A stretch of DNA of 17,204 nt. Source: Promethearchaeati archaeon. GTDB lineage: Archaea; Asgardarchaeota; Heimdallarchaeia; JABLTI01. The position numbers and the translations under genes were made by a program. How positions within the stretch are numbered: position 1 is the first letter of the stretch; every line of letters begins with the position of its first letter. The stretch lies in contig JABLTI010000057.1 of the NCBI GenBank assembly GCA_013166835.1, forward strand, positions 1 to 17,204, given 5' to 3'. The notes below the pieces were generated by a model. The model saw only the letters and a list, made by a program, of their open reading frames with translations, had not been told where the DNA came from and did not search any database. Below are positions 1 to 15,369 of the stretch, piece after piece.

Positions 1-363
1 GGTACGATTAGGATTAATAATTTGACCTCGGAGAGCATTAGCAAAATGAGGGGCTTCATCTTCATGACAAACAATTTCAACTCGTTCTTGTGGAGATTCA
101 GGAGCACTTATTGTAGTCATTTCTTTCATTAATGGAGCCAATCCTGCAGTATGATCATAATGTCTATGTGTGAAAACAATACGTTCAATCTTCTCAAGAT
201 TACACCATTTCTTGCGAATCTTTTTAATGATTATTTTAGAATCTTTCTCGAGACCAGTATCAATGAGAGTTAACATACCATTTTGTTTCTCCAGAACAAA
301 AACTGGAACAGAAAAGAATCCTTTCCCTGTTATGCTAAAAACGTTATCAGCAAGTTGTTTCAT
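1..363 (-). CDS. MBL-fold metallo-hydrolase, N-terminal part (runs off the left edge)
   Basis: Manual translation from ATG at 363: MKQLADNVFSITGKGFFSVPVFVLEKQNGMLTLIDTG...IVFTHRHYDHTAGL..., open to position 1. It has the LIDTG and HxHxDH metallo-beta-lactamase motifs. Not in the supplied ORF track. Confidence 0.88.
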   Translation of the reverse strand, partial: MKQLADNVFSITGKGFFSVPVFVLEKQNGMLTLIDTGLEKDSKIIIKKIRKKWCNLEKIERIVFTHRHYDHTAGLAPLMKEMTTISAPESPQERVEIVCHEDEAPHFANALRGQIINPNRT

Positions 364-428
364 ATAATCATCCAATAAGAAAGAGTATTTACTTACTGAA
401 ATATTTTTTCAAGAGAGAGAATAAGTAT

Positions 429-466
429 AAAAAAAAAGCAAGAAGCTAGGAGTCCGAAAACTCCTA
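429..466 (-). terminator. Hairpin plus U-tract after the substrate-binding protein gene
   Basis: Minus strand reads TAGGAGT-tttcgg-ACTCCTA (7-bp stem, 466-447), followed by gcttcttgc and a T9 run, about 30 nt past the stop codon at 494. Confidence 0.6.
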
Positions 467-493
467 TACTTCAAAGCGGAAAGGGACGAATGA

Positions 494-2272
494 TCATTTT
501 CTTCTCTTTAAGAAGAGAACTTGACTTGCGCCAACAAAAGCTAGTATACTCATGAAAACGATTAAACCGATGCCAGAGACCTCTGTTGTGACTGTGACAT
601 CATAACCTGCTGCAGTCATATGAGCTAGAGCTTGATCAATACTGTAGTCATAAGGTTCTAAAGTTTCATCAAAACCAATGGAGACTTTCGGCCAATGAGT
701 AACACCAGGATAGCCTAAACCATCAAGAATCTCATCAACAATAACTTGTCTTGGAACCATATTACTAATCGCTTTACGAATGTGTTTACCTGATTCTGTA
801 CCTGAAATTGGACAGAGTTCACCAGTACCAATGATTGGATGCATTTGATTAACGGCTAATTCTTGGTTACCTGGCTCAAGAACTTCTGTAGAGTCAATAC
901 TTGCAAGTCCCTGAATATCACCTTGATCTATGTAGAATTCTGAATCAACAAAATCAATGTCACCACCAGCGAGAGCGGAAATAGCTCCTTCTTTATTAGA
1001 ATAGAATTCAAAGTAAATGTCATCGAATTTGGGAGCTGAACCCCAGTAATCATCGAAATAATCATTCACTGTCAAGTGAATTACACCGTTTGTGTCATCC
1101 CAGGAATGAAACTTATATGGACCGAAACCAAAAAGCTTCTCTGGATTGTCTCGTGCCCAAGTGACAGCTTGTTCACCATGATCTGCTGGAGCAGTTGTAT
1201 TCCAAATGTGTGCAGGTATAAGTAGATTGGCTAAATTACCTTCTTGAAACACGTAAGGTTGCAAGAAATTGATAGTAAAGTCATCATCATCGATTTTTAC
1301 CACTGAACTATTATCCCAATAGAATGTATTGTAGGAATAAAGAGTGTGTCCCAAGCTAGCAGTAACAGCTAATTGATAATTATAGATTACATCTTCAACA
1401 GTCACTGGAACTCCATCTGCCCAATAAAGATTTGGTCTAAGTTGACAGTTATAGGTCAATCCATCTGTACTGGTATATGCTTGAAGAGCACGACCAGAGT
1501 AGGTATTATCTGAAGGATCGCGTTCAGCTAAACCATTCCAAATCTGATGTGTCCACTGAGCATCATATGTAGATTCCACTGTCCATACATGGAAATCTTC
1601 AAAATCAGCAGGAACAGCAAAGTGTAGTTCAGATTCACCAGGGATTTCCCAATCTTCCATAGGTTGTTGTGAGGAACCCCATAATAGTGGATCCCAACCA
1701 GTTAGTCCTGGAGTATGAGCGTAAAGAGAAATCTTATAGATTATAGCAATACTTGGTTGATCTTCATAAAGCATTTCTTGTATTTCTTCAGCATATTGTA
1801 TTCTGTCTGCATAGACAAAAGATTGTGTATAATTACTAACAGCCCAATCAAACTCTACATTAGAGTATTGGTAAAAATTATCACCAGCAGGTGTTAACCC
1901 ATCTGTTGTAAATACACCAGTTGGATCAAAATCTAATCCCCAACCGTTTCCAATAAAGAATAAATCATATCCACCTTCGTCGTATGATGGTATTGGATAA
2001 GGTCCTGGGTGTCCCCATGTTCTTGGGGATATTTGAGCCCAACCTGTGTGGTCAAAAACATCTATATTAATTCCAATCTTTGGCAATTGTTCTACCATCA
2101 ATGTTGACCATTGATTTCGTGCCGGATTAGAATTTGGCGCTAATATACTTACTGAGAAAAATGGTCCCGGATTTTTAGCTTCTACTGGTGTCGCTACATA
2201 AGGTATCACCATTACGCTAAAGATGATTATCATTGGAAGAACCAGTCTTCTCGCATTTGTTCTTAGTTTCAA
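494..2272 (-). CDS. ABC transporter substrate-binding protein, family 5 (OppA/DppA-like), C-terminally membrane anchored, circularly permuted domain order
   Basis: Signal peptide; family-5 motifs DGLTYNCQLRPNLYWADGVPVTVEDV, GFGPYKF, HIRKAIS, LPKIGINI, NFYQYSNVEFD and IQEMLYEDQPSI; C-terminal TM helix plus KRRK; TTG start with GAGG RBS. Confidence 0.9.
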   Translation of the reverse strand: MKLRTNARRLVLPMIIIFSVMVIPYVATPVEAKNPGPFFSVSILAPNSNPARNQWSTLMVEQLPKIGINIDVFDHTGWAQISPRTWGHPGPYPIPSYDEGGYDLFFIGNGWGLDFDPTGVFTTDGLTPAGDNFYQYSNVEFDWAVSNYTQSFVYADRIQYAEEIQEMLYEDQPSIAIIYKISLYAHTPGLTGWDPLLWGSSQQPMEDWEIPGESELHFAVPADFEDFHVWTVESTYDAQWTHQIWNGLAERDPSDNTYSGRALQAYTSTDGLTYNCQLRPNLYWADGVPVTVEDVIYNYQLAVTASLGHTLYSYNTFYWDNSSVVKIDDDDFTINFLQPYVFQEGNLANLLIPAHIWNTTAPADHGEQAVTWARDNPEKLFGFGPYKFHSWDDTNGVIHLTVNDYFDDYWGSAPKFDDIYFEFYSNKEGAISALAGGDIDFVDSEFYIDQGDIQGLASIDSTEVLEPGNQELAVNQMHPIIGTGELCPISGTESGKHIRKAISNMVPRQVIVDEILDGLGYPGVTHWPKVSIGFDETLEPYDYSIDQALAHMTAAGYDVTVTTEVSGIGLIVFMSILAFVGASQVLFLKRRK

Positions 2273-2298
2273 TTTTTTTTGCCTCTTGATCTATTATT

Positions 2299-2318
2299 AA
2301 CACACCGGGGAGTGTGTT
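2299..2318 (-). other. Stem-loop in the predicted 5' leader of the substrate-binding protein gene
   Basis: AACACAC-N6-GTGTGTT perfect 7-bp inverted repeat lying between the TATA box (2351-2346) and the RBS. Confidence 0.5.
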
Positions 2319-2331
2319 GTTGTCTATTACA

Positions 2332-2416
2332 TTCTCAATTAGGAGTTATAAGTATTCTCACTATTATGAGAATGAGTTCTATATATATATTAAATTAGTT
2401 CTTGAGTGGTTGAGAA
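2332..2416 (-). promoter_or_regulatory. Promoter and operator array of the substrate-binding protein gene
   Basis: Palindrome ATTCTCA-ctatta-TGAGAAT at 2354-2373. On the minus strand it is followed after 3 nt by TTATAA and then by another TGAGAA half-site (2337-2332). Half-sites start at 2332, 2355, 2377 and 2399. A second, degenerate palindrome TTCTTG-N6-TGAGAA is at 2399-2416. Confidence 0.75.
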
Positions 2417-2538
2417 TTTAATATTGCTTGACTAATAAACCATATTTGAATGTTTAAGGGAAAATGGGGAAGAATTAATTAGAATCCAATTTATGATCAA
2501 TCTTTTTCTAAAACTTTTTTTCTGAAATTGCGAGTAGA

Positions 2539-2573
2539 TTATTTTATAAATTCAGAAAACAATTAAACAGTAA
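2539..2573 (+). repeat. Duplicated promoter segment, copy 1 (TATA-containing)
   Basis: ttattttataaattcagaaaacaattaaacagtaa is identical to 3121-3155. Both copies are followed by attagaggtta (RBS) and a TTG start. Confidence 0.9.
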
Positions 2574-2595
2574 AACAAGATTAGAGGTTATTATA

Positions 2596-3033
2596 TTGAC
2601 TACAACTATTCGTGTACCTCAGAGTTATGCATCACATCATAGTCGTACTGTTGCTCTTCTCCTTTGTTTATTTCTTGGAGGATTTGGGGCTCATCGTTTC
2701 TATGTAGGGAAATCTGGATCCGCTGTTCTTATGCTGATATTATCATTGTGTGGAGTTGGATGGATTTGGTCTTTGATCGACTTAATTATGATTTTAACTG
2801 GATCTTTCACAGATCACTATGGTAGATATGTTACATCTTGGGATGGTGGACCACAACAATCTACTCCAGTTGTTTCTGTAACAACTCGTCCACCACCACA
2901 GCAAGCACCCACACACCCAGTACCACCCCCTCCACAAAAACAAGCAGATGAGATGTTTTGCAATTCATGTGGTGCAATAGCTAAAAAAGATGAAACTTTT
3001 TGTAGGAATTGTGGAGCAGCTTTGCAACACTAG
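2596..3033 (+). CDS. TM2-domain membrane protein with proline-rich linker and C-terminal zinc ribbon, copy 1
   Basis: TM2 signature ALLLCLFLGGFGAHRFYVGK...WSLIDLIMIL; PPP-rich linker; CNSC...CRNC zinc ribbon. Confidence 0.9.
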   Translation: MTTTIRVPQSYASHHSRTVALLLCLFLGGFGAHRFYVGKSGSAVLMLILSLCGVGWIWSLIDLIMILTGSFTDHYGRYVTSWDGGPQQSTPVVSVTTRPPPQQAPTHPVPPPPQKQADEMFCNSCGAIAKKDETFCRNCGAALQH

Positions 3034-3042
3034 AAATATCTC

Positions 3043-3068
3043 TTTTTTTTATTCTTTTTCTTTTTTTT
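3043..3068 (+). terminator. Archaeal-type T-tract terminator
   Basis: Several T5-T8 runs immediately after the stop codon at 3033. Confidence 0.55.
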
Positions 3069-3120
3069 ATTTATTTAACACTATTGTAGATCTATTTTCT
3101 CAAATGTTATATTTGACAGT

Positions 3121-3155
3121 TTATTTTATAAATTCAGAAAACAATTAAACAGTAA
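3121..3155 (+). repeat. Duplicated promoter segment, copy 2
   Basis: 35-bp exact match to 2539-2573. Confidence 0.9.
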
Positions 3156-3175
3156 CAAAATTAGAGGTTATTTAA

Positions 3176-3604
3176 TTGGCAACAACTGTTCATATACAAC
3201 AAAGTAGAGTTTCACATCATAGCCGTACTGTTGCTCTTCTCCTTTGTTTATTTCTTGGAGGATTTGGGGCTCATCGTTTCTATGTAGGTAAGTCTGGATC
3301 CGCGGTTTTTATGTTACTATTGTCGCTCTGTGGATTTGGTTTAATTTGGTGGATAATTGATTTAATTATGATTTTAGCTGGATCGTTCACAGATGACTTT
3401 GGGAGATATGTTTCATCTTGGGATGGTGGACCTCAACAATCTACTCCAGTTGTTTCTGTAACAACTCATCCCCCAGTACAACGAGCACCTCCTCCCCCAC
3501 CCCCACAAAAACAATCTGATGAGATGTTTTGCAATACATGTGGTGGTCTCTGTAAAAAAGCTGAAACATTCTGTCGTAATTGTGGTGCAGCACTCCAACA
3601 TTAA
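3176..3604 (+). CDS. TM2-domain membrane protein with proline-rich linker and C-terminal zinc ribbon, copy 2
   Basis: Close paralog of 2596..3033: same TM2 motif, APPPPPPQ linker, CNTC...CRNC. Confidence 0.9.
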   Translation: MATTVHIQQSRVSHHSRTVALLLCLFLGGFGAHRFYVGKSGSAVFMLLLSLCGFGLIWWIIDLIMILAGSFTDDFGRYVSSWDGGPQQSTPVVSVTTHPPVQRAPPPPPPQKQSDEMFCNTCGGLCKKAETFCRNCGAALQH

Positions 3605-3702
3605 AACCACAAATTACTTCTTTTTTTTTATTCAATTAGAATATAATATAAATCATGATACTAGTTGTTCTTTATAGTTAAAATTCCGATGGTGAGTTAT
3701 AA

Positions 3703-4770
3703 TTGAAAGTTAAATTTCTGGGATTCATTTCAATAATTTTTGGGATTATGTTTTTCTTACAACCTCTTTGTTTATCTGTTGCACAAACATCTACTGAACA
3801 TGATAATTTGTTTACAAATGCTGATGCTATTATAGCAGATCACACGATAGTTAATCGAGTAATGTATGATTTAGTTCCAGAATCAGCTATAAATCACTCT
3901 AAGGAAATTCTACATATTGCATATGGTCACACATCTCACGGCAGTCAAATCATTACTGGTATGAATGATCTCCCAGCTTTCAAGGAAGGCAACGGTGGTT
4001 CTGTTGATCTATATGATTGGAATGAAGGAGGAACTGGAGGAGCTCTCGATATTGATGATGGTTTTGTAGGTGGAGATTTAGGTAATCCTGATAGAACGAC
4101 TTGGGCTTTACTAACAGAAGGTTATCTTGATAATGCGGCTAATTCTGATGTTAATGTTGTTATGTGGTCTTGGTGTGGTCAGGCTTCTAGTGCTACTGAA
4201 GAAGATATCAATACTTATACTTCATTGATGAATGACTTAGAAAATGATTATCCCAGTATCCAATTTGTGTATATGACAGGTCATGTTGATGGTTCTGGTT
4301 TAGAAGGCAACCTCCATATTCGTAATGAACAAATCCGAGAGTATTGTCAAACTAACAGTAAAATTCTCTTTGATTTTGCAGATATTGAATCGTACGATCC
4401 TCATGGCAATTATTTTGGTGACAAGTATTGCACAGATAATTGTGATTATGATTCAAACAACGATACGAATCCCACAAATGATGGCACAAATTGGGCAATC
4501 GAATGGCAAGATGCTCATCCTGGGGATTGGTATACTTGCTCTTCCGCTCATAGTCAACCATTAAATGCAAATATGAAAGCTTATGCAGCTTGGTGGTTAT
4601 GGGCTACTTTAGCAGGATGGGTTGATCCAGATACAACTCCTACTACTCCTGGTTATACTCTAACAAATACCTCTGGTTTATCTTTAGGGTTGGCTTTTAG
4701 TATGATGTTAACATCAATAATCATCTTTATTGTAGTTAGAACAAGTTATCGCAAAAACAGAGTTTACTGA
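3703..4770 (+). CDS. Secreted, C-terminally anchored conserved hypothetical protein, possibly an SGNH-like hydrolase
   Basis: Signal peptide; motifs IAYGHTSHGSQ, WSWCGQ, YMTGH, DFADIES and AHSQPLN; Thr/Pro linker, TM helix and basic tail; GGTGA RBS with TTG start. The hydrolase assignment is tentative. Confidence 0.7.
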   Translation: MKVKFLGFISIIFGIMFFLQPLCLSVAQTSTEHDNLFTNADAIIADHTIVNRVMYDLVPESAINHSKEILHIAYGHTSHGSQIITGMNDLPAFKEGNGGSVDLYDWNEGGTGGALDIDDGFVGGDLGNPDRTTWALLTEGYLDNAANSDVNVVMWSWCGQASSATEEDINTYTSLMNDLENDYPSIQFVYMTGHVDGSGLEGNLHIRNEQIREYCQTNSKILFDFADIESYDPHGNYFGDKYCTDNCDYDSNNDTNPTNDGTNWAIEWQDAHPGDWYTCSSAHSQPLNANMKAYAAWWLWATLAGWVDPDTTPTTPGYTLTNTSGLSLGLAFSMMLTSIIIFIVVRTSYRKNRVY

Positions 4771-4920
4771 TTGTAAGTTCATTTTAGAACGATACAACTA
4801 CTTTCAATTAGATTTGTTCGTTATCCTTTCAGAAAGAGTCACGTTTCATCTTGAATTTTGCAATTTTTCTTTGAGCTAATTTTAGAAAAATTTTTATGTG
4901 TTTTTATCAATTAACATTCG

Positions 4921-6099
4921 GTGGTTAAACGAGTGACTCCTATTAATGAAAATAGTGTTGAAGTAGATAAAGAGGTAATTTTAGAAGAAGATTTATCGAT
5001 TAAATCTGGAGAGACTTTAGACCCAACAGTAATGCAAAAGGAATCCAAATTAGGTTTTTTTGAAAAATTACTTGCAGTATGGGTAGCACTCTGTATGGGT
5101 ATTGGTATTTTGGTATCTATTTATTTGCCAAAATTTGGTGAAACAATAAACAATTGGAATTTATTTGAAACGTGGAGAGGTGGTATAGGCATCAATATAC
5201 CTATTGGTATTTGTTTGTTTTTTATGATGTATCCAGCTATGTTGAATCTTCAATTCAAAGAATTAAAAAAACTCGGTAGAAACCCATTGCCAATAATATT
5301 AACACTTTTTTCTAATTGGATAATAGCTCCATTAGTTGCAGCTGGTTTAGCCTATCTAATTCTTCCAGGAAACTCTGATTTAATTATTGCAGTCATCTTG
5401 TTAGGATCAAGTCCCTGTACTGCCATGGTCTTGGTTTGGGGATCACTTGCTAAAGGTAATCAAGAACAAAATGTGATAAATACAAGTATTAATACTGTAT
5501 CAATTATGTTTCTTTACGTTCCTATTGTCTCATTATTGACTGGAATAGGAAATTTGAGCATCGATAGATTAATACTATTCATCACAGTAACCATCTTTAT
5601 TGGTGCCCCATTAGTTCTTGGACTTTTAAGTAAAGTTCTATTAGTGAAAGCAAAAGGTAAAGAATGGTTTGATACAAAATATCGTCCAGTTGTTGGTAAA
5701 ATTTCTATAGTTGCACTTCTTAGCACGCTGATTATTCTCTTTTCAATCAATGGTAGTAAACTGATTGAATATCCGTTGGAATTACTAAAAGTTTCTGCAC
5801 CACTGCTTATTGGATTCGTCATTGTTGTTGGATTTAATCTTTTAATTACAAAATTATTCCGACTTCAATATCGTGAAGCAATTATTACAACGATCATTGG
5901 CAGTTCGAGTCATTTCGAAATAGCCATAGCAACAGCTCTTGGTATTAGTGCATTAGCTGCTCTTGGTACAACAATGGGGCTTTTCTGGGAAGTACCGATT
6001 ATGCTTGGATTAGTTTATCTTGGAAGATTCCTAAATAAGAAAGGATTTTGGAAAGGAAGAAAGAAGGAAGAAATATTAGTTTCCAATCAAAAAACATAA
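4921..6099 (+). CDS. acr3: Acr3-family arsenite/antimonite efflux transporter
   Basis: About 10 TM segments with Acr3 motifs MMYPAM, NWIIAPL, PCTAMVLVW (conserved Cys) and SSHFEIAIA. Confidence 0.9.
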   Translation: MVKRVTPINENSVEVDKEVILEEDLSIKSGETLDPTVMQKESKLGFFEKLLAVWVALCMGIGILVSIYLPKFGETINNWNLFETWRGGIGINIPIGICLFFMMYPAMLNLQFKELKKLGRNPLPIILTLFSNWIIAPLVAAGLAYLILPGNSDLIIAVILLGSSPCTAMVLVWGSLAKGNQEQNVINTSINTVSIMFLYVPIVSLLTGIGNLSIDRLILFITVTIFIGAPLVLGLLSKVLLVKAKGKEWFDTKYRPVVGKISIVALLSTLIILFSINGSKLIEYPLELLKVSAPLLIGFVIVVGFNLLITKLFRLQYREAIITTIIGSSSHFEIAIATALGISALAALGTTMGLFWEVPIMLGLVYLGRFLNKKGFWKGRKKEEILVSNQKT

Positions 6100-6253
6100 G
6101 AAATTGCAGATACTTAACAGGTAGATTTACTCTACATGATCTTTTTTCTTTTATTAAACTAAGAAGAAATAGTTCAAACAGCTACTAGAAATTCATCTAA
6201 AAAATGAAAATATAAAGTTTAAATCTCTTGATCTAAACTTATCATCATTTGTT

Positions 6254-6880
6254 TTAACCATTATAACAATCTTTTATGACATCTTGAATGTCATATTTCA
6301 AACACAATGCAATCCAACCAACAAATTCTTTTACAGCGCTTATTCCTTTCCAATCTAGATCTGCGAATTGCTCTAGTACTTCAGGTTCAGCATGTTCTAG
6401 TAACTCAACAAATAACAGATGCTTTTCGATATCGAATCTATTTGCGATTTCTGTGAAACAAATTCCACAACCTCTTTTCTTATCAAAAATACTGCTTAGG
6501 ATCAACTTAGCTACTTCAAATTCAGCTCGTATTTCACCATCTTCGAATTTCTTTGGTTTTTTTGTAATAAAGACCTTTGCTGCTCGAGAATAAATTGTCT
6601 CGCTAATTAGAATCCCTTCATCTACAGAGGTAATTCGTTTACCTGCTTTGGCAATTAATCCAAGTTTAAGCAATTTGCTTAAATAGCGATATAAGGTTTT
6701 TTCTGATTTTTCTTTACCATGCTTCTCGAAGGCTTCTTTAATATCTGTTATTGTTAGTGGACCTTTTGCTAAAATCTTCAATACCCATGCTAAGTTTTCA
6801 TCACTGAAAGACATTGATTGTTTATCATTTAGTATGAGAATTGCTTTTTGTTTGTATGTTATTGCTTGTTGTTTTAGCAT
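6254..6880 (-). CDS. Winged helix-turn-helix (ArsR-like) transcriptional regulator 1 with helical C-terminal domain
   Basis: VLKILAKGPLTITDIKEAF...KSEKTLYRYLSKLLKLGLIAKAG wHTH pattern; AGGTGA RBS; paralog of 7344..7988; contains CGIC. Confidence 0.85.
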   Translation of the reverse strand: MLKQQAITYKQKAILILNDKQSMSFSDENLAWVLKILAKGPLTITDIKEAFEKHGKEKSEKTLYRYLSKLLKLGLIAKAGKRITSVDEGILISETIYSRAAKVFITKKPKKFEDGEIRAEFEVAKLILSSIFDKKRGCGICFTEIANRFDIEKHLLFVELLEHAEPEVLEQFADLDWKGISAVKEFVGWIALCLKYDIQDVIKDCYNG

Positions 6881-6904
6881 TTTTCAATCACCTACCGATT
6901 TATT

Positions 6905-7011
6905 TTCTTATTTTAATTACAATTTATTCTTAATCCTATGATATATTGGGTCTCAAACATTTAAAAACCTTTTCTCACATCTGTGAGAATCTTTATATAT
7001 CATTCTGAGAA
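6905..7011. promoter_or_regulatory. Divergent promoters with operator array, module 1
   Basis: Palindrome TTCTCAC-atct-GTGAGAA at 6972-6989, TATA box TTATATAT at 6993-7000, TGAGAA at 7006-7011. Further half-sites: TTCTTA 6905, TTCTTA 6927, GTCTCA 6950. Minus-strand TTTAAAT between 6950 and 6972 is a candidate TATA box for regulator 1. Confidence 0.8.
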
Positions 7012-7051
7012 TAATATCCTACACGAAAGATGCACTTGGGGTGTGTATTTA

Positions 7052-7084
7052 TCCTGATAGAATCAAGTATTGAGGATATCAGGA
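7052..7084 (+). other. RBS-overlapping hairpin in the leader of peptide A
   Basis: TCCTGATA-gaa-TCAA-gta-TTGA-gga-TATCAGGA. The 3' arm includes the first bases of the AGGAGGTGA RBS. Confidence 0.55.
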
Positions 7085-7094
7085 GGTGAAAAAA

Positions 7095-7181
7095 TTGAGA
7101 CATGACAAAAAGATCAAACAAATAATCAAGAAAGAAAAAGAAAGAGCAAGAATAAAATTTGCACTCTATACTGGAAGATAA
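7095..7181 (+). CDS. Small peptide A, 28 aa: MRHDKKIKQIIKKEKERARIKFALYTGR
   Basis: Strong RBS AGGAGGTGA 5 nt before TTG; upstream TATA box; same length and C-terminus as peptide D (8460..8546). Confidence 0.8.
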   Translation: MRHDKKIKQIIKKEKERARIKFALYTGR

Positions 7182-7215
7182 ATAACGATAAAACAAAGAG
7201 GAGTTGTTATTTATC
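7177..7215 (+). terminator. Stem-loop overlapping the peptide A stop codon (terminator or 3' stabiliser)
   Basis: GATAAATAAC (7177-7186) and GTTATTTATC (7206-7215) form a perfect 10-bp inverted repeat, extendable with G-U pairs. Confidence 0.5.
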
Positions 7216-7343
7216 GCCCATCTTTATCTATTAATGGTTTTAATGAAATCTTTTGGACGAAAAATTCTTCTCAAAAAACCGATTTTTATAATGTAAGATT
7301 AACTCAACCTTAATAGCTATAAGAAAAGAAGTGGGAAAAGGAC

Positions 7344-7988
7344 TTATTTTACGAAAATTTGCTCAAGATCTCTAGCTATATCTTGTTCGGGGATTATTGC
7401 TAACCAACCAATATATTGCAAGAGAAAATTGATACCCTGATAGTCAAGTTGAGCTACTTTCTCAAGTGTTTCATCTTTAGCATTCTCGAATAAATTAACG
7501 ACTAATTCATCTCGATCCTTATCCAGCTTATTAGCGAATTTAACAAATTCCTTCTCCGAAGCATTTTTCCCAAAATACTCGCTTAGAAGTAGTCTCGTTG
7601 CTTCCCAGACGGAATTGGCTCCTTTTTTATCAGATCCTGGTTCAGTAACAGGTGCAACAGTAATAAAGGCTATCGCAGAGCGTGTATAAATTGTTTCAGA
7701 AGTAAGATTGTCTGATGTTTTTGAGGTTATCCTTTTTCCTGCTTTAGCCACAAGTTTTACTTCTAGTAATTTGTGTAAATATCTGTAGATCGATTTATCA
7801 GATTTCTCGATGCCAATTTTCCTAAAGGATTCTTCCAAATCCCCGATGGTCATTGGTTCTTTTCTTAGAAATTTCAAAACATATCCTAGATTTTCATCCT
7901 TAAAAAGATCGAGAGTTTCTTTGTCTCGGATAATAATTACTGGTTTTTGTTTAAAAGTAATAACATTCTTGGGATCTGTAACTGCCAT
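7344..7988 (-). CDS. Winged helix-turn-helix (ArsR-like) transcriptional regulator 2
   Basis: VLKFLRKEPMTIGDLEESF...KSDKSIYRYLHKLLEVKLVAKAGKRITS. Shares IT[FY]KQK, DENL, AKAGKRITS, SETIY and GW[IL]A with regulator 1; AGGAG RBS. Confidence 0.85.
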   Translation of the reverse strand: MAVTDPKNVITFKQKPVIIIRDKETLDLFKDENLGYVLKFLRKEPMTIGDLEESFRKIGIEKSDKSIYRYLHKLLEVKLVAKAGKRITSKTSDNLTSETIYTRSAIAFITVAPVTEPGSDKKGANSVWEATRLLLSEYFGKNASEKEFVKFANKLDKDRDELVVNLFENAKDETLEKVAQLDYQGINFLLQYIGWLAIIPEQDIARDLEQIFVK

Positions 7989-8059
7989 TTGTTTTGTCTC
8001 CTTCTCTTAAAGAGATATTTTACTAATAATATAAAATCTTAATCAGTCTAATTGTTAGT

Positions 8060-8188
8060 TTCTTATCTATATAATAAATAGTTTCTCAATGTTTATAAAT
8101 ATTATTCTTAATGATGTAATTTTCCACTCTCTTATAGGTGAACTCAAGTTCTCACTATAATGAGAACCCTTATATACTGGTATGAGAA
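8060..8188. promoter_or_regulatory. Divergent promoters with operator array, module 2
   Basis: Palindrome TTCTCA-ctataa-TGAGAA at 8149-8166, TATA box TTATATA at 8170-8176, TGAGAA at 8183-8188. Half-sites at 8060 (TTCTTA), 8083 (TTCTCA), 8105 (TTCTTA) and 8127 (degenerate CTCTCT). Confidence 0.8.
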
Positions 8189-8228
8189 TAACTTCCTAAC
8201 GAATTGGTAAAGTTTGGGTGAAAAAAAA

Positions 8229-8330
8229 TTGAAAGAGAAGAAAAATATCACCACAGATAAAGATGGAAAGAAAGATAGTGAAAAAGTCAAGATTCTCTTG
8301 GCTATGTTTTACTCAGATGGATTGATATAA
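8229..8330 (+). CDS. Small peptide B, 33 aa: MKEKKNITTDKDGKKDSEKVKILLAMFYSDGLI
   Basis: GGGTGA RBS, A-run and TTG, the same start context as peptide A; first ORF after the TATA box; charged N-terminus and hydrophobic C-terminus. Confidence 0.65.
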   Translation: MKEKKNITTDKDGKKDSEKVKILLAMFYSDGLI

Positions 8331-8356
8331 TCACACTGTTCGTGGAGGAAACCACA

Positions 8357-8428
8357 ATGAAAGATCACAGAAATCTTAAAGGCCAAATCAAGAAGGAATT
8401 AACTCCCATCAAGAGAGTTACAAAATAA
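8357..8428 (+). CDS. Small peptide C, 23 aa: MKDHRNLKGQIKKELTPIKRVTK
   Basis: GGAGGA RBS (8344-8349) 7 nt before ATG; N-terminus resembles peptide A (IKKE). Confidence 0.5.
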   Translation: MKDHRNLKGQIKKELTPIKRVTK

Positions 8429-8459
8429 AAAGAATCGGTAGAATGGAGGAATCACGCTG

Positions 8460-8546
8460 ATGCAAAAAAAGCAAGAGCACAAAAAGAAAATCCAAGCAGA
8501 TAAAAATAAAACCAGAATGAAATTCGCACTATTTACAGGCAGATAA
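8460..8546 (+). CDS. Small peptide D, 28 aa: MQKKQEHKKKIQADKNKTRMKFALFTGR
   Basis: GGAGGA RBS (8445-8450); C-terminal RMKFALFTGR matches RIKFALYTGR of peptide A with synonymous codon differences. Confidence 0.8.
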   Translation: MQKKQEHKKKIQADKNKTRMKFALFTGR

Positions 8547-8550
8547 GAAC

Positions 8551-8611
8551 GCTCCTTCCATGGGGAGTGCTCCTTATCTCCCTTTCTGGTATTATTTTTT
8601 GGGGAAGAGAT
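8551..8611 (+). terminator. GC-richer hairpin(s) after the peptide cluster
   Basis: GCTCCTT-ccat-GGGGAGT (8551-8568, with G-U pairs) and ATCTC-CC...GGGG-aa-GAGAT (8576-8611) around a T-rich stretch. Confidence 0.4.
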
Positions 8612-8639
8612 TAAGTCTATTTTTATTAATTCTATTCGG

Positions 8640-8671
8640 AATATGTCACTTAAGAAATTCTTAAATGATGA
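8640..8671 (+). promoter_or_regulatory. Conserved promoter motif of surface-protein paralog 1
   Basis: aatatgtcacttaagaaattcttaaatgatga is 25/32 identical to 10699-10730; contains TTAAAT; begins 67 nt before ATG 8707. Confidence 0.7.
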
Positions 8672-8706
8672 ATTTCTCACGTTTAGATAGTAATAGGTGT
8701 TTTCCT

Positions 8707-9684
8707 ATGAACCGAAAAATTAAGATTTTGATGTTGACTAAAATAGTACTTGTACTATTTCTTATTGGTAATTATACCACAACCCTTGCTGCTGATAGAG
8801 AATGGCACGTAGGAGACATTTTTACTTTTACTGACTCAATACATCAGATTATCACCGACCATGACATTGAATTCGATTCACAAGATACAACCGAAATTGT
8901 AGTGCAAGATGCATTTACTTATAATATTACCGAAATCAATTTACTAACCGGAAGGTATTGGGCTTTTATGACTGATACATCTGGTGCAGGAAGCATTATC
9001 GGTTATAATTTTACTATTGATGACTACGTTAGCACCTACATTGATAATATCAATACAGCTCTAACAGTTGATTACGAATGGGACTATGGCACAAATAGCA
9101 CAAAATTAGTTGATTTTGGCTTTGGTCTTGCTATTTGGTTACTAATTGAACCTGATTGGGCAAAACTCAATACTGCTTTTATTGATATGTTTAATGAAAC
9201 AGAAATCATAGAGACAGTTGCAGATCCTTATCAACCAATTACTTACAATTTTACTCTTGGAGATTTCCTAAGTTCAATTTCCTATACTTTCATGGGTAAA
9301 GATAATCTTGCAGACGCTAAAAAACAAATGAAATCTGACACCACTGAATGGAGTCTAGTATTTGATTTGACTAATGTCATTTATACAGATGTATTAAATG
9401 GAACTCTTGGATACGATGAGTATTATCCATATCCGAATGCGATTTTCACCTATGAAATGGGTTACTCAAAAGGCGGTGTTTTGCAAAGAGCTCACACGAA
9501 AATTGATTATAGTGTTCTTCAGGGCAATTATAGAGGTGATGTTTATATGAAGATCCTCACAATTTTTGGAGATCTCGAAGCTCTAACCGGTAATTTTGCT
9601 TATTGGATGGCAGTTCCAGGATTTCTGTTAATTGTGGCGGTTGTGCGAATTGCTAAACGAAAATCAAATAGGAGGAATAGGTGA
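8707..9684 (+). CDS. Membrane-anchored surface protein, paralog 1 (start revised from 8665)
   Basis: AGGTG RBS before ATG 8707; MNRKIKILML matches MSKKIRILML of paralog 3; signal peptide; shared motifs YEWDY, LLIEPDW, ADPYQPI, MGK; C-terminal TM helix plus basic tail. Confidence 0.8.
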   Translation: MNRKIKILMLTKIVLVLFLIGNYTTTLAADREWHVGDIFTFTDSIHQIITDHDIEFDSQDTTEIVVQDAFTYNITEINLLTGRYWAFMTDTSGAGSIIGYNFTIDDYVSTYIDNINTALTVDYEWDYGTNSTKLVDFGFGLAIWLLIEPDWAKLNTAFIDMFNETEIIETVADPYQPITYNFTLGDFLSSISYTFMGKDNLADAKKQMKSDTTEWSLVFDLTNVIYTDVLNGTLGYDEYYPYPNAIFTYEMGYSKGGVLQRAHTKIDYSVLQGNYRGDVYMKILTIFGDLEALTGNFAYWMAVPGFLLIVAVVRIAKRKSNRRNR

Positions 9685-9689
9685 TTCAA

Positions 9690-10649
9690 ATGAAAACTAA
9701 AAATAAACTTATCTTTGTTCTATCTTTTGTCTCAATAATTCTTCTATTTAGTACCTTTACAAATGCGAATGCAGCTGAAGCCCCATGGGCTGATGGAAGT
9801 ATATTTACTTGGGCTGCTGAAGATGGTATAATCCTTCATACAGTTGATTACGAAGCAGATATTGAGCAAATTATTGAATCCCGTTCAGGATCATTATTCA
9901 CTTATAATCTAACAGATGTGGATAATAGCACATTAACCTATGATTATGATGTGCTTGGAATACTCGGTGTTGGCGGTATTACTTCCTATGACGTGCAAGC
10001 CTTCATTGGATCATTCTCCCTTGGAAGTATGTTCACAGTAAGTTATGTTTGGGACTATGAATACAATATAACAGTGTTGGACACATTTGGATTTACACTA
10101 CCATATTGGTTATTGATAGAACCAAATTGGACAACCGTTAATAGTAAATTTAATGAAGAATTCAACGGTAGTACAATAATGGACACTGTTGCAGATCCAT
10201 ACCTACCTCTTATCCATAATTTTACATTGAATGATTTGCTTAATGACGCTAATTCTTTTTCAATTATGGGTAAAAGCACCTTAGCAGAAGCTAAACAACA
10301 ATTCACCCCCTCAACAACCAGATGGACATTCGAGTTTGATTACTCAAATGTTTTGCTAACAGGTAGATTCAATTCCACAGCTGGTTACAACAACTACTAT
10401 AAATACGAAGTGCTAACTGAACAAGCTACTCTAGAATATAACGCTAATGGGGTTCTCAAATATTATGAAGATAATGGAGAAGTACAAGAAACATATATGG
10501 ATAGAATGATTAGCATAAAGTACAATTTCTACATCAATTTAGGCGACTTTCTCACAACAGAGACATCCCCATTCTGTTTTCTAATAGCAATTCCTGCTGT
10601 AGCAAGTATGGTCATTTTTGTGAAATGGATGAATAAGAGAAAGAATTAA
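9690..10649 (+). CDS. Membrane-anchored surface protein, paralog 2 (start ATG 9690 or GTG 9681)
   Basis: AGGTGA-N5-ATG; signal peptide; YVWDY, LLIEPNW, ADPYLPL, MGK, WTFEFD; TETSPF followed by TM helix and KRKN. Confidence 0.8.
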   Translation: MKTKNKLIFVLSFVSIILLFSTFTNANAAEAPWADGSIFTWAAEDGIILHTVDYEADIEQIIESRSGSLFTYNLTDVDNSTLTYDYDVLGILGVGGITSYDVQAFIGSFSLGSMFTVSYVWDYEYNITVLDTFGFTLPYWLLIEPNWTTVNSKFNEEFNGSTIMDTVADPYLPLIHNFTLNDLLNDANSFSIMGKSTLAEAKQQFTPSTTRWTFEFDYSNVLLTGRFNSTAGYNNYYKYEVLTEQATLEYNANGVLKYYEDNGEVQETYMDRMISIKYNFYINLGDFLTTETSPFCFLIAIPAVASMVIFVKWMNKRKN

Positions 10650-10698
10650 TCTCTTGTTTCTTCATTTTTTCTGCTTTTTTTTCTTTTGATTCTCCTTA

Positions 10699-10730
10699 AA
10701 TATGTCGTGTTAGGAATTCTTATATGAGGA
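10699..10730 (+). promoter_or_regulatory. Conserved promoter motif of surface-protein paralog 3
   Basis: aatatgtcgtgttaggaattcttatatgagga, with TTATAT; begins 67 nt before ATG 10766. Confidence 0.7.
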
Positions 10731-10765
10731 TGCTATCTAATCTAATTAGTGTTTAGGTGATGCTT

Positions 10766-11734
10766 ATGAGCAAAAAAATTAGGATTTTGATGTTGATCAA
10801 TGCAATTGCAGCTATGATTTTAGTAAGCAGTATTAGCACTGCCCAAGCTGTTCCACCAGGTTGGAATGCTGGCGACATAATTGTCTGGGGCATGAGGAAT
10901 ACAACAAAAGCTTCGACTTATGAAGAAGGTGAAGATGTTTTAGGTTCAGAAGTTACTATGAATAACGATCTTGAATATAATGTAACCGCACTTGATACTT
11001 TAAACAGGGAATTTGATGCTATTGAGACTGATGCTAGCGGTTCAACTTTTAGAGATAATAAAGACTATGGTGCTGCCGAGTTTGTAAGTGATGAGCTAGA
11101 TCTTTATGATTTCTTCAGTGTTAATTATGTCTGGGATTACGTAAACAATGTCTCAGTTTGCACCAGCTTTGATGCATATTTCTTTGACAGTTTCATTTCG
11201 ATTTATTTCTTAATTGAACCAGACTGGGCCATAATAAACGATGGTTACGTAGACATGTTTAATACTTCAGTAGTTATGGATACACTAGCTGATCCATATC
11301 AACCAATCATTTACAATTATACACTTGGAGACATTATTGATGCAATTTCTATGAAAATAATGGGTAAAAACGAACTTAGTTCTGCCATCAATCAATTCAC
11401 AGATACCGTGAGAAAATGGACTTTTGAATTTGACCTCAGCGGTTACATAAAAAATGGTCAATTTAATGGTACAGATATAATCTACTATGATTATGAAGAA
11501 TACAAAATCTACGTTGAATTAGAATACACTAAAGAAGGTGTGTTGGATCGATTAGAATATAGTTTTATTGACAAAATAACCATTAATGATGTAACTAATG
11601 AGTTTGATTACAAAGAAGTAATTGCACAAGGTGGTATGAAAGCTGCTGCAGCAAACTTCGCGACTTTCGCAGCTATAGGCGGTCTCGTCTCCACAGCGTT
11701 AATTGCTATTTTCATCAAACGTAAGAAGAAGTGA
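10766..11734 (+). CDS. Membrane-anchored surface protein, paralog 3 (start revised from 10757)
   Basis: AGGTGA-N5-ATG; signal peptide; YVWDY, FLIEPDW, ADPYQPI, MGK, WTFEFD; ANF followed by TM helix and KRKKK; T-tract downstream. Confidence 0.8.
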   Translation: MSKKIRILMLINAIAAMILVSSISTAQAVPPGWNAGDIIVWGMRNTTKASTYEEGEDVLGSEVTMNNDLEYNVTALDTLNREFDAIETDASGSTFRDNKDYGAAEFVSDELDLYDFFSVNYVWDYVNNVSVCTSFDAYFFDSFISIYFLIEPDWAIINDGYVDMFNTSVVMDTLADPYQPIIYNYTLGDIIDAISMKIMGKNELSSAINQFTDTVRKWTFEFDLSGYIKNGQFNGTDIIYYDYEEYKIYVELEYTKEGVLDRLEYSFIDKITINDVTNEFDYKEVIAQGGMKAAAANFATFAAIGGLVSTALIAIFIKRKKK

Positions 11735-11891
11735 ATTTTTAATTCCACTTTTTTCTTTTTTCTTTTCTCTTTTGCCTTAATCTGAAGTTATTTTAAAGTT
11801 CTTCACATTTTATTCATTAAGGATCAATTGATCTACGAAAAACCAATTCATACGAGTGGATTTTATGAACTGGAGCCTGAGGAAATAGACG

Positions 11892-14800
11892 ATGTTTTCA
11901 AAAATTAGATCATATTTTATTATATTTATAATCCTAGCTACCCCCCTAAATTCATTATTTTTGAGCATGTTAGTAGCAAGTCCTAACTCAAGCTCCGCTA
12001 TACTTTCGAATGATTATATTGAAGGTACAGGAGATTTATCTCCGAATGCAGAGAATGGATTACTTTGGAGTTCCATTTCCGGATTAACAGGAGAGTTAAC
12101 TACTTCTCCGATAATTGACTTTAATACCGAGAGTGAATTAATGCAAATAGTCTACATTGGAACAGAAATTGGATTAACAAAAATACAAGTAGAAACTGGG
12201 AACATCTATTGGACTCATCCTACTCCTGGAGCTATACTTAGTATAACTCCAGTTGAGGACATAACAGGTGATAATAATAAAGAAATCCTTGTAACAGTTG
12301 ATAATCAAGAATTCAACAATACTGAAATGTTAAATGGTTTAACTGGAGAAATCATTTGGTCACATCGTCCAACAGAGACCGTTTGGCAAGAAGGTATAGG
12401 TTTTTCACAACAAGAAACGCGAACTTGGTCTGGTTTGCTCATAGAAGACATTTCTGGTGATGGAACTAGAGATGTGTTGGTTTCATCATATAAATCAGTC
12501 TTTGCCTTAGATGCAGAAGATGGTTCAGTATTATGGCAACAAAGTGCTTCTAATGATGTCTGGAATACTGAATTAATGGATGATGATGTAGATTCGGATG
12601 GATATGATGATATTGTAATAGGTTCACAAGATGGTGAGCTAATGCTTCTCAGTGGAGAAGATGGTTCAATTATCTGGGAAATTATTGCTGCAGAGGAAGC
12701 GAGATATATCGATCAAACTCAAGGTATCGAATATACCTTTGATCGCAATGTATATGATGTTCGCAAGTGTTTTGACATGAATGGTGATGGTAAGAAAGAT
12801 ATTCTCACTACAGATGAGAACGGTTATTGTGCAATTTATGATGTCATTTCAGGCGAACTAATTGATCGAGTACTTGCTTATAGTAGGACCGGACCTGAAA
12901 CAGATCAGGCTTCTTTTGGCAGCAAAGATTTCTATAATCCTATGTCAATGGATGTTGTCGATGATTATGGATTGACAAAAGTCCTTACTGCTGCACGTTC
13001 AGATGCTGTTTTTAGTAATCTCACACTCTCTCTTCTAAATCTAGGGATGAATGATCTATATGTTGATTGGAGTATTTCATCTGTCAATATTGAAGATGTT
13101 AGAAGTATTGCAACAAGCGTAGCGACGGAAGGTAATGGAACTTATACTAAAATGATTATTCCCACAGGAATCATGGGTTCTTCACAATTTGAGAGAACAA
13201 TAGAAGTATATGCTCTATTCAACAACTCTATGATAGCTCAATGGAATCTCACAGTGTTAAATACTGAAAGCGATTTTCAGTTAGACTTTGGAGATACCTC
13301 AGAAGGCCAATACCCATTTAGTGGCAATCATGCATTCTTCGTTAGAGATTTTCAAGGATCACCAGAGGAAGAAGTGCTTATTTATCTAGCAGGATACGGT
13401 TTATATCTCCTAGATGGAGATACCGGAGATTTACTATGGAGTCAAATAAAATCAGCAAAAGTAAAAATCGAACCCTATTTTGATGTTAATTCCGATTCAA
13501 CCATTGATATACTAAGAAAAGAATACTATTATCTTGACCAGTACAGTACTAGTCGTTTCCGTATACCAAGGATAACTATGATTAGTGGCGATTCCGGCGA
13601 AACAATTTGGGATCATGAAATAGATTATGAAGATCGAGAATTAGTAGGTGGAGGATACTTAAGCATTCTACAAGCGGAAGATATTACAAATGATTCAATT
13701 CCTGATTTATGGCTTGCTCAGCAAGAATATGATAACTGGGAATTTAATCTGGTTAATGTTTCAAAAGTCAAATTACTAGACGGTGCTACTGGAGCCATTG
13801 TTTGGGAATCATTACCAGCTAATAGTTCAAAGGTATACTCTCAAGAGCAAATGAGATTAACGTCGATATCTCCTATTGCTGATCAAGATAATGATGAAAT
13901 TCAAGATATTTTAATAGGATGTCAAAGAAGTTACATTTATTGTAGGAGTGGTTTTGATGGGGCACTAATCTGGAATATTACTCGAGAAGCAGCACCTTTT
14001 GATCCACATTATAGAAATTGGATTCCATATACCCCACTTATTTCCGGTGTTGGGAACATACAAGGAAATACCACAGATGATTTTGTAATTCTGGGTGATG
14101 GGCAAGTACAATTAGTTGATTCTGATAATTTCACAACAGTTATGTGGTTATGGTTTAATCCACTTGGTTGGATTGATGAGCAAAATTTTAAAATCCATAT
14201 AAATTGGGCTCAGAATGAATTATTCGCTATTTTTACCATTAATAAAAATGATAAACAATATACAGCTTTTATCGATCTTGTCACTGGAACTTTGGATCAT
14301 GAAATTCTTGGGGAAATGAATCAATTCAATATTCAATTCTTTGCTGCTGATTTTAATTTAGATGGAACAAATGATCATTTACTATACCGACCTTATGGTA
14401 GTGAAGATTTTACGGAAGGAACATACATTATCAATGGAATCACTGGTAGTGTCTTAAGTTTTTATTCAACCTTTTACCCGCAATTTGAACGCTGGTATTG
14501 GCTTGTTGATCAACTCTACAGATTTGGAGCTGATAGTTTCGTAGATGTATACGAAGATGTAAACTCCGATGGAATTCCTGAAATTGTCTCTGGTTTTTCC
14601 ATTGGCAAGCATAATAAGGAAGATCTAGGCCAAGGAATGGCTGTAGAAATAATTGATGTCTCGACGATAAATCCAGATGTTATAAAATATGAATTCGTAA
14701 AAATAGAGAAAGATCAATATTCATCCCCACCACTTTTACCTGCTGGTTATACTCGGACTATTGGTGATGTAACTGGTGACGGAAAAGCAGAGATTCTTAT

Positions 14801-15362
14801 CTCTTTAGTTACTCCAGAAGGAGAATTTAAGACAATAATATTAGATATTTCGAAGGATGGTGGAGTTTGGAAGGAAATCACTGATATTGTCTATGACTCA
14901 ATAATTCCAGCAGAACTTAATGGAACATTAGATGGAGATTTAGTTCTTTGTGATCTTAATGGACGAATTAGAGCTTTAGATAATGAGTTTGCTGTCACAA
15001 TTACAGATTTCCAAGTAATTCAACAAGGAGTTGGACAATACTACCTAGAGTGGAGTAGTAATGCAGAGAATGTAATGTCTAAAATCTTTATTGATCATGA
15101 AGTAGTATCAACTGTGTTCACTTCAGAAGCAGAAATTTTCTTGAGTGGTGGAGAGCACAATCTAACTATTTCAGTTAGTGATCGAAATGGAATAAGTGCT
15201 TTTACTAACATGATAGTTTCAATTGATAGAGGTGGTGGGTTGCTAATAGTATGGATAGCGGTGGGAGTACTAACTATTGGTTTTGTTGGATTGAAATTAT
15301 TCTTCAGATTTAAACGGAAAGAAGACTTAACGGACTTCGGTCCAGATAGAGGAGGAACGTGA
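11892..15362 (+). CDS. Large single-pass surface protein with FG-GAP/VCBS-like Ca-binding and PQQ-like beta-propeller repeats
   Basis: About 12 D-x-[NTD]-x-D-G-like loops (DITGDNNKEILV, DISGDGTRDVLV, DVDSDGYDDIVI, DMNGDGKKDILT, DVTGDGKAEILI and others) alternating with [TD]G-x-[IVL]-[ILV]-W motifs; beta-rich Ig-like segment; C-terminal TM helix and short tail. Confidence 0.82.
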   Translation: MFSKIRSYFIIFIILATPLNSLFLSMLVASPNSSSAILSNDYIEGTGDLSPNAENGLLWSSISGLTGELTTSPIIDFNTESELMQIVYIGTEIGLTKIQVETGNIYWTHPTPGAILSITPVEDITGDNNKEILVTVDNQEFNNTEMLNGLTGEIIWSHRPTETVWQEGIGFSQQETRTWSGLLIEDISGDGTRDVLVSSYKSVFALDAEDGSVLWQQSASNDVWNTELMDDDVDSDGYDDIVIGSQDGELMLLSGEDGSIIWEIIAAEEARYIDQTQGIEYTFDRNVYDVRKCFDMNGDGKKDILTTDENGYCAIYDVISGELIDRVLAYSRTGPETDQASFGSKDFYNPMSMDVVDDYGLTKVLTAARSDAVFSNLTLSLLNLGMNDLYVDWSISSVNIEDVRSIATSVATEGNGTYTKMIIPTGIMGSSQFERTIEVYALFNNSMIAQWNLTVLNTESDFQLDFGDTSEGQYPFSGNHAFFVRDFQGSPEEEVLIYLAGYGLYLLDGDTGDLLWSQIKSAKVKIEPYFDVNSDSTIDILRKEYYYLDQYSTSRFRIPRITMISGDSGETIWDHEIDYEDRELVGGGYLSILQAEDITNDSIPDLWLAQQEYDNWEFNLVNVSKVKLLDGATGAIVWESLPANSSKVYSQEQMRLTSISPIADQDNDEIQDILIGCQRSYIYCRSGFDGALIWNITREAAPFDPHYRNWIPYTPLISGVGNIQGNTTDDFVILGDGQVQLVDSDNFTTVMWLWFNPLGWIDEQNFKIHINWAQNELFAIFTINKNDKQYTAFIDLVTGTLDHEILGEMNQFNIQFFAADFNLDGTNDHLLYRPYGSEDFTEGTYIINGITGSVLSFYSTFYPQFERWYWLVDQLYRFGADSFVDVYEDVNSDGIPEIVSGFSIGKHNKEDLGQGMAVEIIDVSTINPDVIKYEFVKIEKDQYSSPPLLPAGYTRTIGDVTGDGKAEILISLVTPEGEFKTIILDISKDGGVWKEITDIVYDSIIPAELNGTLDGDLVLCDLNGRIRALDNEFAVTITDFQVIQQGVGQYYLEWSSNAENVMSKIFIDHEVVSTVFTSEAEIFLSGGEHNLTISVSDRNGISAFTNMIVSIDRGGGLLIVWIAVGVLTIGFVGLKLFFRFKRKEDLTDFGPDRGGT

Positions 15363-15369
15363 TAAAACA

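Follow-up and report, generated by a model that had tools for sequence, protein, structure and literature searches.

A contig of a Heimdallarchaeota genome (Promethearchaeati archaeon, GenBank assembly GCA_013166835.1, contig JABLTI010000057.1, positions 1 to 17,204; this whole 17,204-nt stretch is referred to as the window) contained two open reading frames (ORFs) of 28 codons on the + strand, peptide A (7095–7181) and peptide D (8460–8546), whose products ended in nearly the same ten residues. The locus raises the question of whether such short frames are genes and, if they are, what their products do next to two genes for winged-helix regulators. Among known archaea, Heimdallarchaeota rank with the closest relatives of eukaryotes. 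Knowledge of them comes almost wholly from automated annotation, which is prone to miss genes this short. The two peptides belonged to a real, selected microprotein family, which was restricted to one genus and genetically tied to winged-helix regulators, and the case is one of a lineage-specific family expanded at transcription-factor loci. The sequence family, the host lineage, and the regulator type are new here, whereas small proteins encoded beside transcription factors are of an already known kind.

A selected and genus-restricted family of microproteins

Peptide A started with TTG, 6 nt after the Shine-Dalgarno (SD) sequence AGGAGGTG (7081–7088), and its paralogue D, the last cistron of a unit with two further small ORFs (B and C), started with ATG preceded by GGAGG. 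Both consisted of 28 codons followed by TAA, and both were below the usual length cutoffs of gene calling. The last ten residues, RIKFALYTGR in A and RMKFALFTGR in D, were identical at 8 positions, which was the starting point of an earlier sequence-only reading and was reproduced in every detail, including the conservative nature of the two replacements. Six codons of this decamer differed, four of them synonymously (ttt/ttc, ctc/cta, act/aca, and gga/ggc) and two conservatively (ata/atg and tat/ttt). A family profile was built from six copies in the same genome and scanned over 127,557 short stop-to-stop frames, in which A and D scored E values of 1.7e-14 and 1.8e-16, respectively; the similarity of the two peptides therefore exceeds chance. 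Orthologues of A were found in four other genomes of the genus, and the position of the start codon was retained in them, one genome having ATG there and a second having GTG.

For the codon tests, 80 non-redundant copies were collected from loci of the genus after a copy with an indel and another with an internal stop had been set aside, and three weak rows were later removed. Counted over 28 non-overlapping nearest pairs, 63, 57, and 125 differences fell at codon positions 1, 2, and 3 (chi-square p=2.9e-8), and the ratio of nonsynonymous to synonymous differences (pN/pS) was 0.30 in the annotated frame against 1.03 in each of the other frames. The sequence-only reading had taken the synonymous codons of A and D as a sign of selection on the protein and had named frameshifts or a lack of synonymous bias in homologous loci as what would speak for a nucleic-acid element; the codon bias was present, just 1 of about 80 copies had a broken frame, and the outcome favoured the protein. 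Start and stop positions were conserved. An SD-like motif occupied positions −15 to −4 in 69 of 76 copies, compared with 10% of random positions, and the start codons of the same copies were ATG (63), TTG (9), and GTG (4). The ORFs were 27–33 residues long, with the stop directly after model position 28 in 63 of 76 copies and 1–4 extra residues in the other 13. Paralogues kept about 40% protein identity. In 63 close pairs the ORF diverged by 8%, and the 60-nt flanks by at most 34% upstream and 27% downstream, these flank values being upper bounds since the comparison was ungapped and indels inflate flank divergence.

These data bear directly on the possibility that the conserved object is a repeat, a small RNA, or a terminator in which the ORFs are incidental. 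Conserved stem-loops overlapped the stop codons, and one subfamily had strongly conserved promoters and 5′ leaders, as would be expected of such an element. It is contradicted, however, by the third-position excess and the low pN/pS, which were confined to one frame. The SD motifs, the fixed start and stop positions, the protein identity kept between paralogues, and the roughly 3–4 times greater divergence of the flanks (as an upper bound) also argue against it, and no Rfam family matched (best E 0.25, far under the gathering score). An element of DNA or RNA is thus extremely improbable, and A and D are, to judge from the codon statistics, real and translated genes under protein-level selection.

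The whole assembly (3.56 Mb, 260 contigs, 33.7% G+C) was searched by six-frame regular expression and tblastn, and 12 family members, including A and D, were found at E<0.01 in the profile scan. In their alignment Arg19 and Gly27 were invariant and Leu24 was nearly so. All 12 copies were on the + strand of nine contigs (C143, C21, C253, C247, C123, C95, C59, C138, and C37), which may be an artefact of contig orientation; copies in other genomes were on both strands. Six-frame profile searches of related genomes, which were 63–99% complete, so that absence means not found in those searched, recovered the family in all 11 genomes of the genus, with 2–14 copies in each. The family was not found in 30 further relatives, nor, outside the genus, in 72 genomes from 17 genera of the class and 389 genomes from 84 genera of the phylum. 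The search for further copies that the sequence-only reading had suggested therefore yielded many, all within one genus of Heimdallarchaeota among the genomes searched.

Among 1.84 billion representative proteins, 59 clusters matched the family at E≤0.001, and 57 of them were 27–50 residues long with the match ending within three residues of the C-terminus. Ten clusters were looked up, and of the 16 members listed, one was named, as a hypothetical protein. A Pfam scan of 73 members gave no family at E<0.02, with any weak match common to at most four members. NCBIfam gave no family for seven peptides, the best PDB match in a profile search with the peptide family had an E value of 0.079, the ESM Atlas held no usable match for the peptide, and a degenerate pattern for the C-terminus and stop had no match in viral contigs. 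A full-text literature search returned no description of such a family in the text that it covered, and bulk catalogues in supplements might list the ORFs.

Composition and predicted structure of the peptides

The family members were strongly basic, with a mean net charge of +6.2 (range +3 to +10) and 22.5% lysine, and hydrophilic, with a grand average of hydropathy (GRAVY) of −1.04. The N-terminal 19 residues were rich in Lys, Gln, and Glu and did not resemble a hydrophobic or signal-like N-terminus. They were followed by a hydrophobic stretch of about 6–9 residues, shorter than a transmembrane-length segment such as that of type I toxins. The general design was a charged N-terminal part and a short hydrophobic C-terminal patch ending in glycine and one further residue, which varied widely (Arg, Ala, Cys, Gln, Val, Ser, and others). 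An AlphaFold2 model of A in a 31-residue form, computed from a 73-row alignment, consisted of one helix (residues 2–29) with a mean predicted local distance difference test (pLDDT) value of 91.6, and the invariant glycine may form its C-cap. The family is thus predicted to consist of multi-copy, genus-restricted basic proteins of 27–33 residues, each a single capped α-helix.

The sequence-only reading had regarded the C-terminal decamer as the likely active or mature part of the peptide. This claim found no support, because the whole peptide was conserved and no processing signal was seen: the N-terminal two thirds were also conserved (consensus including KK..IK.QIKKD.E), the model was one continuous helix, and the analysis turned up neither a signal sequence nor a cleavage motif nor a processing enzyme. 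The decamer holds the most conserved positions, Arg19, Leu24, and Gly27, and is probably a key interaction or capping segment.

A peptide of this composition might be exported, either as a cell–cell signal sensed by the neighbouring regulator, as in the Rgg/SHP or RRNPP systems, or as a leaderless cationic antimicrobial secreted through linked ATP-binding cassette (ABC) transporters. The peptides were cationic and without a leader, their genes stood partly as diverged paralogues in tandem, and the family was confined to one lineage, all of which suits export. Leaderless cationic bacteriocins and phenol-soluble modulins are likewise helical peptides of about 20–45 residues, with tandem paralogous genes and, at some loci, an ABC exporter. 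The present peptides differ from them in being neither amphipathic nor hydrophobic. The helical hydrophobic moment averaged 0.17 as against 0.22 in shuffled sequences, and the observed value was reached by a median fraction of 0.58 of the shuffles; the idea of an amphipathic lytic helix was rejected on this ground. The hydrophilic sequence without a signal-like N-terminus also argues against export, and the position-specific conservation of Arg19, Leu24, and Gly27 is more readily explained by a defined protein interface than by general activity on membranes.

Regulators, promoters and transcripts at the peptide loci

In the window, peptide A was transcribed divergently from the gene of regulator 1 (6254–6880, − strand; 208 aa), and the B-C-D operon was divergent from that of regulator 2 (7344–7988, − strand; 214 aa), which was convergent with A. 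The two regulators were paralogues with 44% identity. Regulator 1 matched Pfam HTH_5 at E 3.9e-6, and regulator 2 matched this family weakly. The AlphaFold2 model of regulator 1 (mean pLDDT 91.3) was compared with known structures by Foldseek, in which the best match was PH1932, an ArsR homologue of Pyrococcus horikoshii (PDB codes 1uly and 2cwe; E 6e-8), followed by PadR of Bacillus subtilis and VanR. A PDB profile search with the regulator also gave the PH1932/PadR type (E 0.0035). The neighbouring regulators shared with this family, at TM-scores of 0.53–0.57, a winged helix at the N-terminus and a helical domain at the C-terminus, whereas the sequence identity was about 18%.

The promoters of A and of B-C-D were alike. 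In each, the inverted repeat TTCTCA-N4-6-TGAGAA lay directly beside a TATA-like box, and a half-site TGAGAATA followed downstream. As read from the sequence, the first (6972–7013, + strand) consisted of TTCTCA (6972–6977), TGAGAA (6984–6989), the TATA-like TTTATATA (6992–6999), and the half-site (7006–7013), and the second (8149–8190, + strand) of TTCTCA (8149–8154), TGAGAA (8161–8166), TTATATA (8170–8176), and the half-site (8183–8190). A regular expression for this architecture matched just four sites in the 3.56-Mb genome, and all four were at regulator/peptide promoters. In related loci of the genus the architecture occurred in 32 distinct contexts; where these were readable, a family member or another Lys-rich small ORF followed the operator, a statement given without a tally, the automatic choice of ORF being imperfect. 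The regulators may bind this TTCTCA/TGAGAA palindrome as their operator. The transcription units shared a common layout, in which a TATA-type promoter lay by a palindromic operator, each small ORF had its own SD sequence, and a stem-loop covered the last stop. Together, the family profile and the operator motif permit annotation of the peptide genes in all genomes of the genus.

The other small ORFs of the second unit were peptide B (8229–8330, + strand; 33 aa), whose N-terminus was Lys-rich and whose conserved, hydrophobic C-terminus ended in DGLI, and peptide C (8357–8428, + strand; 23 aa), which had the N-terminal K.QIKKEL pattern of the A/D family without the hydrophobic tail. Peptide B had 11 distinct copies in related loci, with 10, 14, and 30 differences at codon positions 1, 2, and 3 in five non-overlapping pairs, and peptide C had 10 distinct copies. 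Metatranscriptome contigs from two studies covered parts of the B-C-D unit (8242–8539 in run X19 and 8442–8604 in run X20), which is a weak hint of expression; stretches without contig cover in these runs are uninformative either way.

The linkage to regulators extended beyond the window. In the same genome, 7 of 10 family loci adjoined a gene of the ArsR-type winged helix-turn-helix (wHTH) class, and HTH_5 matches totalled 21 in the 3.56 Mb; on a rough estimate, a random site would lie within about 700 nt of such a gene in 2% of cases. A Lys/Arg-rich small ORF with an SD-like site was detected by a filter upstream of 14 of 16 close relatives of the regulators, and the hidden Markov model of the family found members at the other two. 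One subfamily was located 13–27 nt upstream of a gene for a protein of about 360 residues with a C-terminal ArsR-type winged helix. This protein was present in 63 of 83 genomes of the class, and the peptide preceded it at 9 of 10 loci of the genus (the tenth was at a contig end) compared with 0 of 20 loci of other genera. One class-conserved regulator had thus acquired an upstream peptide gene only in this genus. In the peptide-bearing genus the N-terminus of the same protein (loci L125–L154) was Lys-rich, and in other genera it was acidic and Glu-rich.

Another subfamily was located 6–35 nt upstream of a gene for a bactofilin-like protein, and other copies formed tandem pairs followed by a convergent gene; among these copies a second conserved promoter type occurred, with the palindrome CACAA-N-TTGTG. 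This palindrome was found about 50 nt upstream of TTTATATA (C59:21726, C123:3551, C253:41370, C72:2044(−), and C249:233). The promoters of this type served tandem peptide pairs, an operon of a peptide and a bactofilin-like protein, a peptide-less bactofilin-like paralogue, and a 32-residue peptide with a family-like N-terminus and a different C-terminus. Moreover, other Lys-rich small ORFs with different conserved C-termini occupied the same regulator/operator modules (L003:6790–6900 on contig C247, and loci L072–L074, L088, L089, and L097). These ORFs point to a broader repertoire of regulator-linked microproteins in the genus.

The heterogeneous surroundings of the family loci, which included housekeeping genes, together with the high charge, the abundance of lysine, and the predicted single-helix shape, would suit general nucleic-acid-binding or ribosome-associated microproteins, whose function would have no connection with the adjacent genes and whose proximity to regulators would merely reflect the spread of the family. 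The linkage to wHTH genes was nevertheless far above expectation, the synteny with specific partners was kept across the genus, and a core ribosomal or chromatin role is hard to reconcile with a family absent from all other genera searched. A general binder of this kind is accordingly decidedly unlikely.

The gene order also bears on export. The small ORF was divergent from the regulator gene and had a putative operator at its promoter, an ABC-2 transporter was encoded downstream in the window, an FtsX-type permease and an ABC ATPase were encoded beside the paralogous locus on contig C21, and a family-5 solute-binding protein was encoded at 494–2272. These features recall the Rgg/SHP and other RRNPP cassettes of Firmicutes, in which an unannotated short ORF lies by, and often divergent from, a transcription-factor gene with an operator at the peptide promoter. 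The peptides of those cassettes also have a positively charged N-terminus and a hydrophobic C-terminus, with ABC-type transporter genes nearby. The arrangement of a short ORF and an adjacent regulator with a putative operator at the peptide promoter was found at all four such promoters of the genome and was conserved in the genus. The sequences showed neither a secretion signal nor a hydrophobic body of the sort expected in a pro-peptide that would be processed to a mature C-terminal fragment. The differences extend to the regulator, which is a winged-helix protein of the PH1932/PadR-like fold rather than a tetratricopeptide repeat (TPR) peptide receptor, no TPR family being among the Pfam results; to the peptide, which is hydrophilic and has no signal-like segment or processing site; and to the host, an Asgard archaeon. 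In addition, transporters were near only 2 of the 10 loci, and no protease or immunity gene was recognised. Export, as a signal or as an antimicrobial, is therefore quite improbable. A more specific form, in which the modules of a regulator and a divergent small ORF would be autoregulatory or cell–cell signalling cassettes that arose independently of the bacterial RRNPP systems, with linked ABC transporters exporting the microproteins or their conserved C-terminal segments and the PH1932/PadR-like regulators sensing them, appears very doubtful.

Function of the peptides and comparison with known systems

The main rival to a role in trans arises from the 3′ ends. A stem-loop with a 13-bp stem at 7177–7215 (+ strand) included the stop codon of A, with a predicted RNA folding energy of −14.9 kcal/mol (z −4.2; 0 of 200 shuffles folded as well). 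Orthologues of A retained a stem-loop at the same position, and in one of them the stem had another sequence. For D, a stem-loop at 8541–8579 included the stop and was followed by a U-run at 8595–8600 (the whole feature spanned 8541–8600, + strand). Its folding energy was −20.1 kcal/mol with z −1.4, compared with z −2.6 at the paralogous locus L001 and down to −5.3 in orthologues. The end of the metatranscriptome contig from run X20 fell just past this U-run. Across the family, z was below −2 in 24 of 75 3′ regions, and the stop codon was paired in a predicted stem-loop in 36 of 75. Stop-codon read-through, for which frames remained open for 44–48 codons past A and D, was considered and dropped, as a paralogous locus had a stop after 15 codons and the conserved 3′ letters formed the stem-loop.

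From these features, the peptides could be cis-acting leader or arrest peptides: the nascent 28-mer would slow termination from within the ribosomal exit tunnel, and the ribosome would mask the stem-loop that overlaps the stop, which would alter transcript termination, read-through into downstream genes, or antisense transcription of convergent genes. Peptides of 27–33 residues are short enough to lie inside the exit tunnel. The most conserved residues were, in 63 of 76 copies, at a fixed distance from the stop, and many copies were the first cistron ahead of a larger gene, at 6–35 nt, or, for D, 118–162 nt ahead of a surface-protein operon. In these respects the family resembles TnaC, SpeFL, and other stop-codon arrest or leader peptides, which have a similar length, a fixed residue–stop distance, and RNA structure or downstream genes by the stop. 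However, many copies here stood alone, the final residues varied, and 2–14 copies per genome were dispersed in trans. Peptide A and the tandem pairs had no co-oriented downstream gene, the last residue was variable and 13 of 76 copies carried additional residues, the downstream cistrons had SD sites of their own, and the N-terminal residues, which would be well away from the peptidyl-transferase centre, were conserved too. Furthermore, we know of no arrest peptide described in archaea. A leader or arrest function is thus unlikely, although it is the foremost competitor. To our knowledge, ribosome stalling or signalling by these peptides would, if true, be a first for archaea.

We tentatively prefer, at somewhat less than even confidence, a reading in which the peptides are cytoplasmic, trans-acting partners or modulators within circuits of the winged-helix (ArsR/PadR-like) regulators. 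The neighbouring regulator would bind the TTCTCA/TGAGAA operator and set the output of peptide. The peptide, through the conserved Arg–hydrophobic–Gly face at its C-terminus, would in turn feed back on the regulator, on DNA, or on a co-encoded partner. The binding of the operator, the target of the peptide, and the feedback loop are thus put forward as putative parts of one circuit. SinI with SinR, and other small anti-repressors and microProteins, might offer an analogy, since they too are very small helical proteins encoded beside a transcription-factor gene and presumed to modulate it directly. The present peptides differ in being unrelated in sequence to the regulator and, with 28 residues, much smaller, and their binding to the regulator is a proposal. 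If the peptides do modulate winged-helix regulators, they would provide a compact and experimentally tractable example of microprotein regulation in archaea.

Several observations weigh against this preferred role in trans. The binding of the peptide to the regulator or to DNA is itself a proposal, and profile–profile comparison gave no similarity between the peptide profile and the regulator profile, and the peptide was therefore no longer regarded as a possible detached helix of the regulator. Three of the 10 loci had no wHTH neighbour, two being tandem pairs and one located upstream of a bactofilin-like gene. A Lys/Arg-rich, SD-bearing small ORF passed the filter at 0 of 28 loci of distant regulator paralogues. 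The RNA evidence consisted of contigs only, from which strand, ends, and level are not readable and in which carry-over of DNA is possible. In addition, one of about 80 copies, a D-type copy of genome G002 (L021; G002:C258, approximately 3663–3746), contained an in-frame TAA by an AAA-to-TAA change at model position 21. The remaining ORF and the 3′ stem-loop of this copy were intact, and the copy may represent a pseudogene or result from an error of assembly. A complex of two copies of regulator 1 with peptide A, in its 31-residue GTG-start form, was predicted with alignments as input and scored 0.00, which is neither for nor against binding.

Downstream of D, the co-oriented genes of the window (8665–17204, + strand) encoded three paralogous membrane-anchored proteins of about 325–340 residues (8665–9684, 9681–10649, and 10757–11734), which had a hydrophobic N-terminal segment and no Pfam match, followed by a 1156-residue FG-GAP/β-propeller protein and the ATPase and permease of the ABC-2 transporter. 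The first of these genes also followed D in four other genomes of the genus.

The last eight residues of peptide A (7158–7181) were the same as a segment just before the HIGH-type motif of the tryptophanyl-tRNA synthetase of the same genome (contig C197; L009:1944–3104, − strand), with 22 of 24 nt identical. This match was judged coincidental, because at least one exact 8-mer match to the proteome proxy occurred in 7% of 2000 shuffles of the 12 peptides (p ~0.07) and because the synthetase segment varied within the genus (Ala, Ser, or Val at one position) with no matching change in the peptide. A class-I synthetase paralogue with 33–34% identity to the tryptophanyl-tRNA synthetase (G000:C213:579–1676 and G007:C92:2147–3235, both − strand) had a single in-frame TAG in both of these genomes, which are closely related; the five other genomes of the genus with a match were without that TAG. 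Elsewhere in the window, 2596–3033 and 3176–3604 (+ strand) were tandem paralogous TM2-domain genes, the first of which also matched zinc-ribbon families at its C-terminus.

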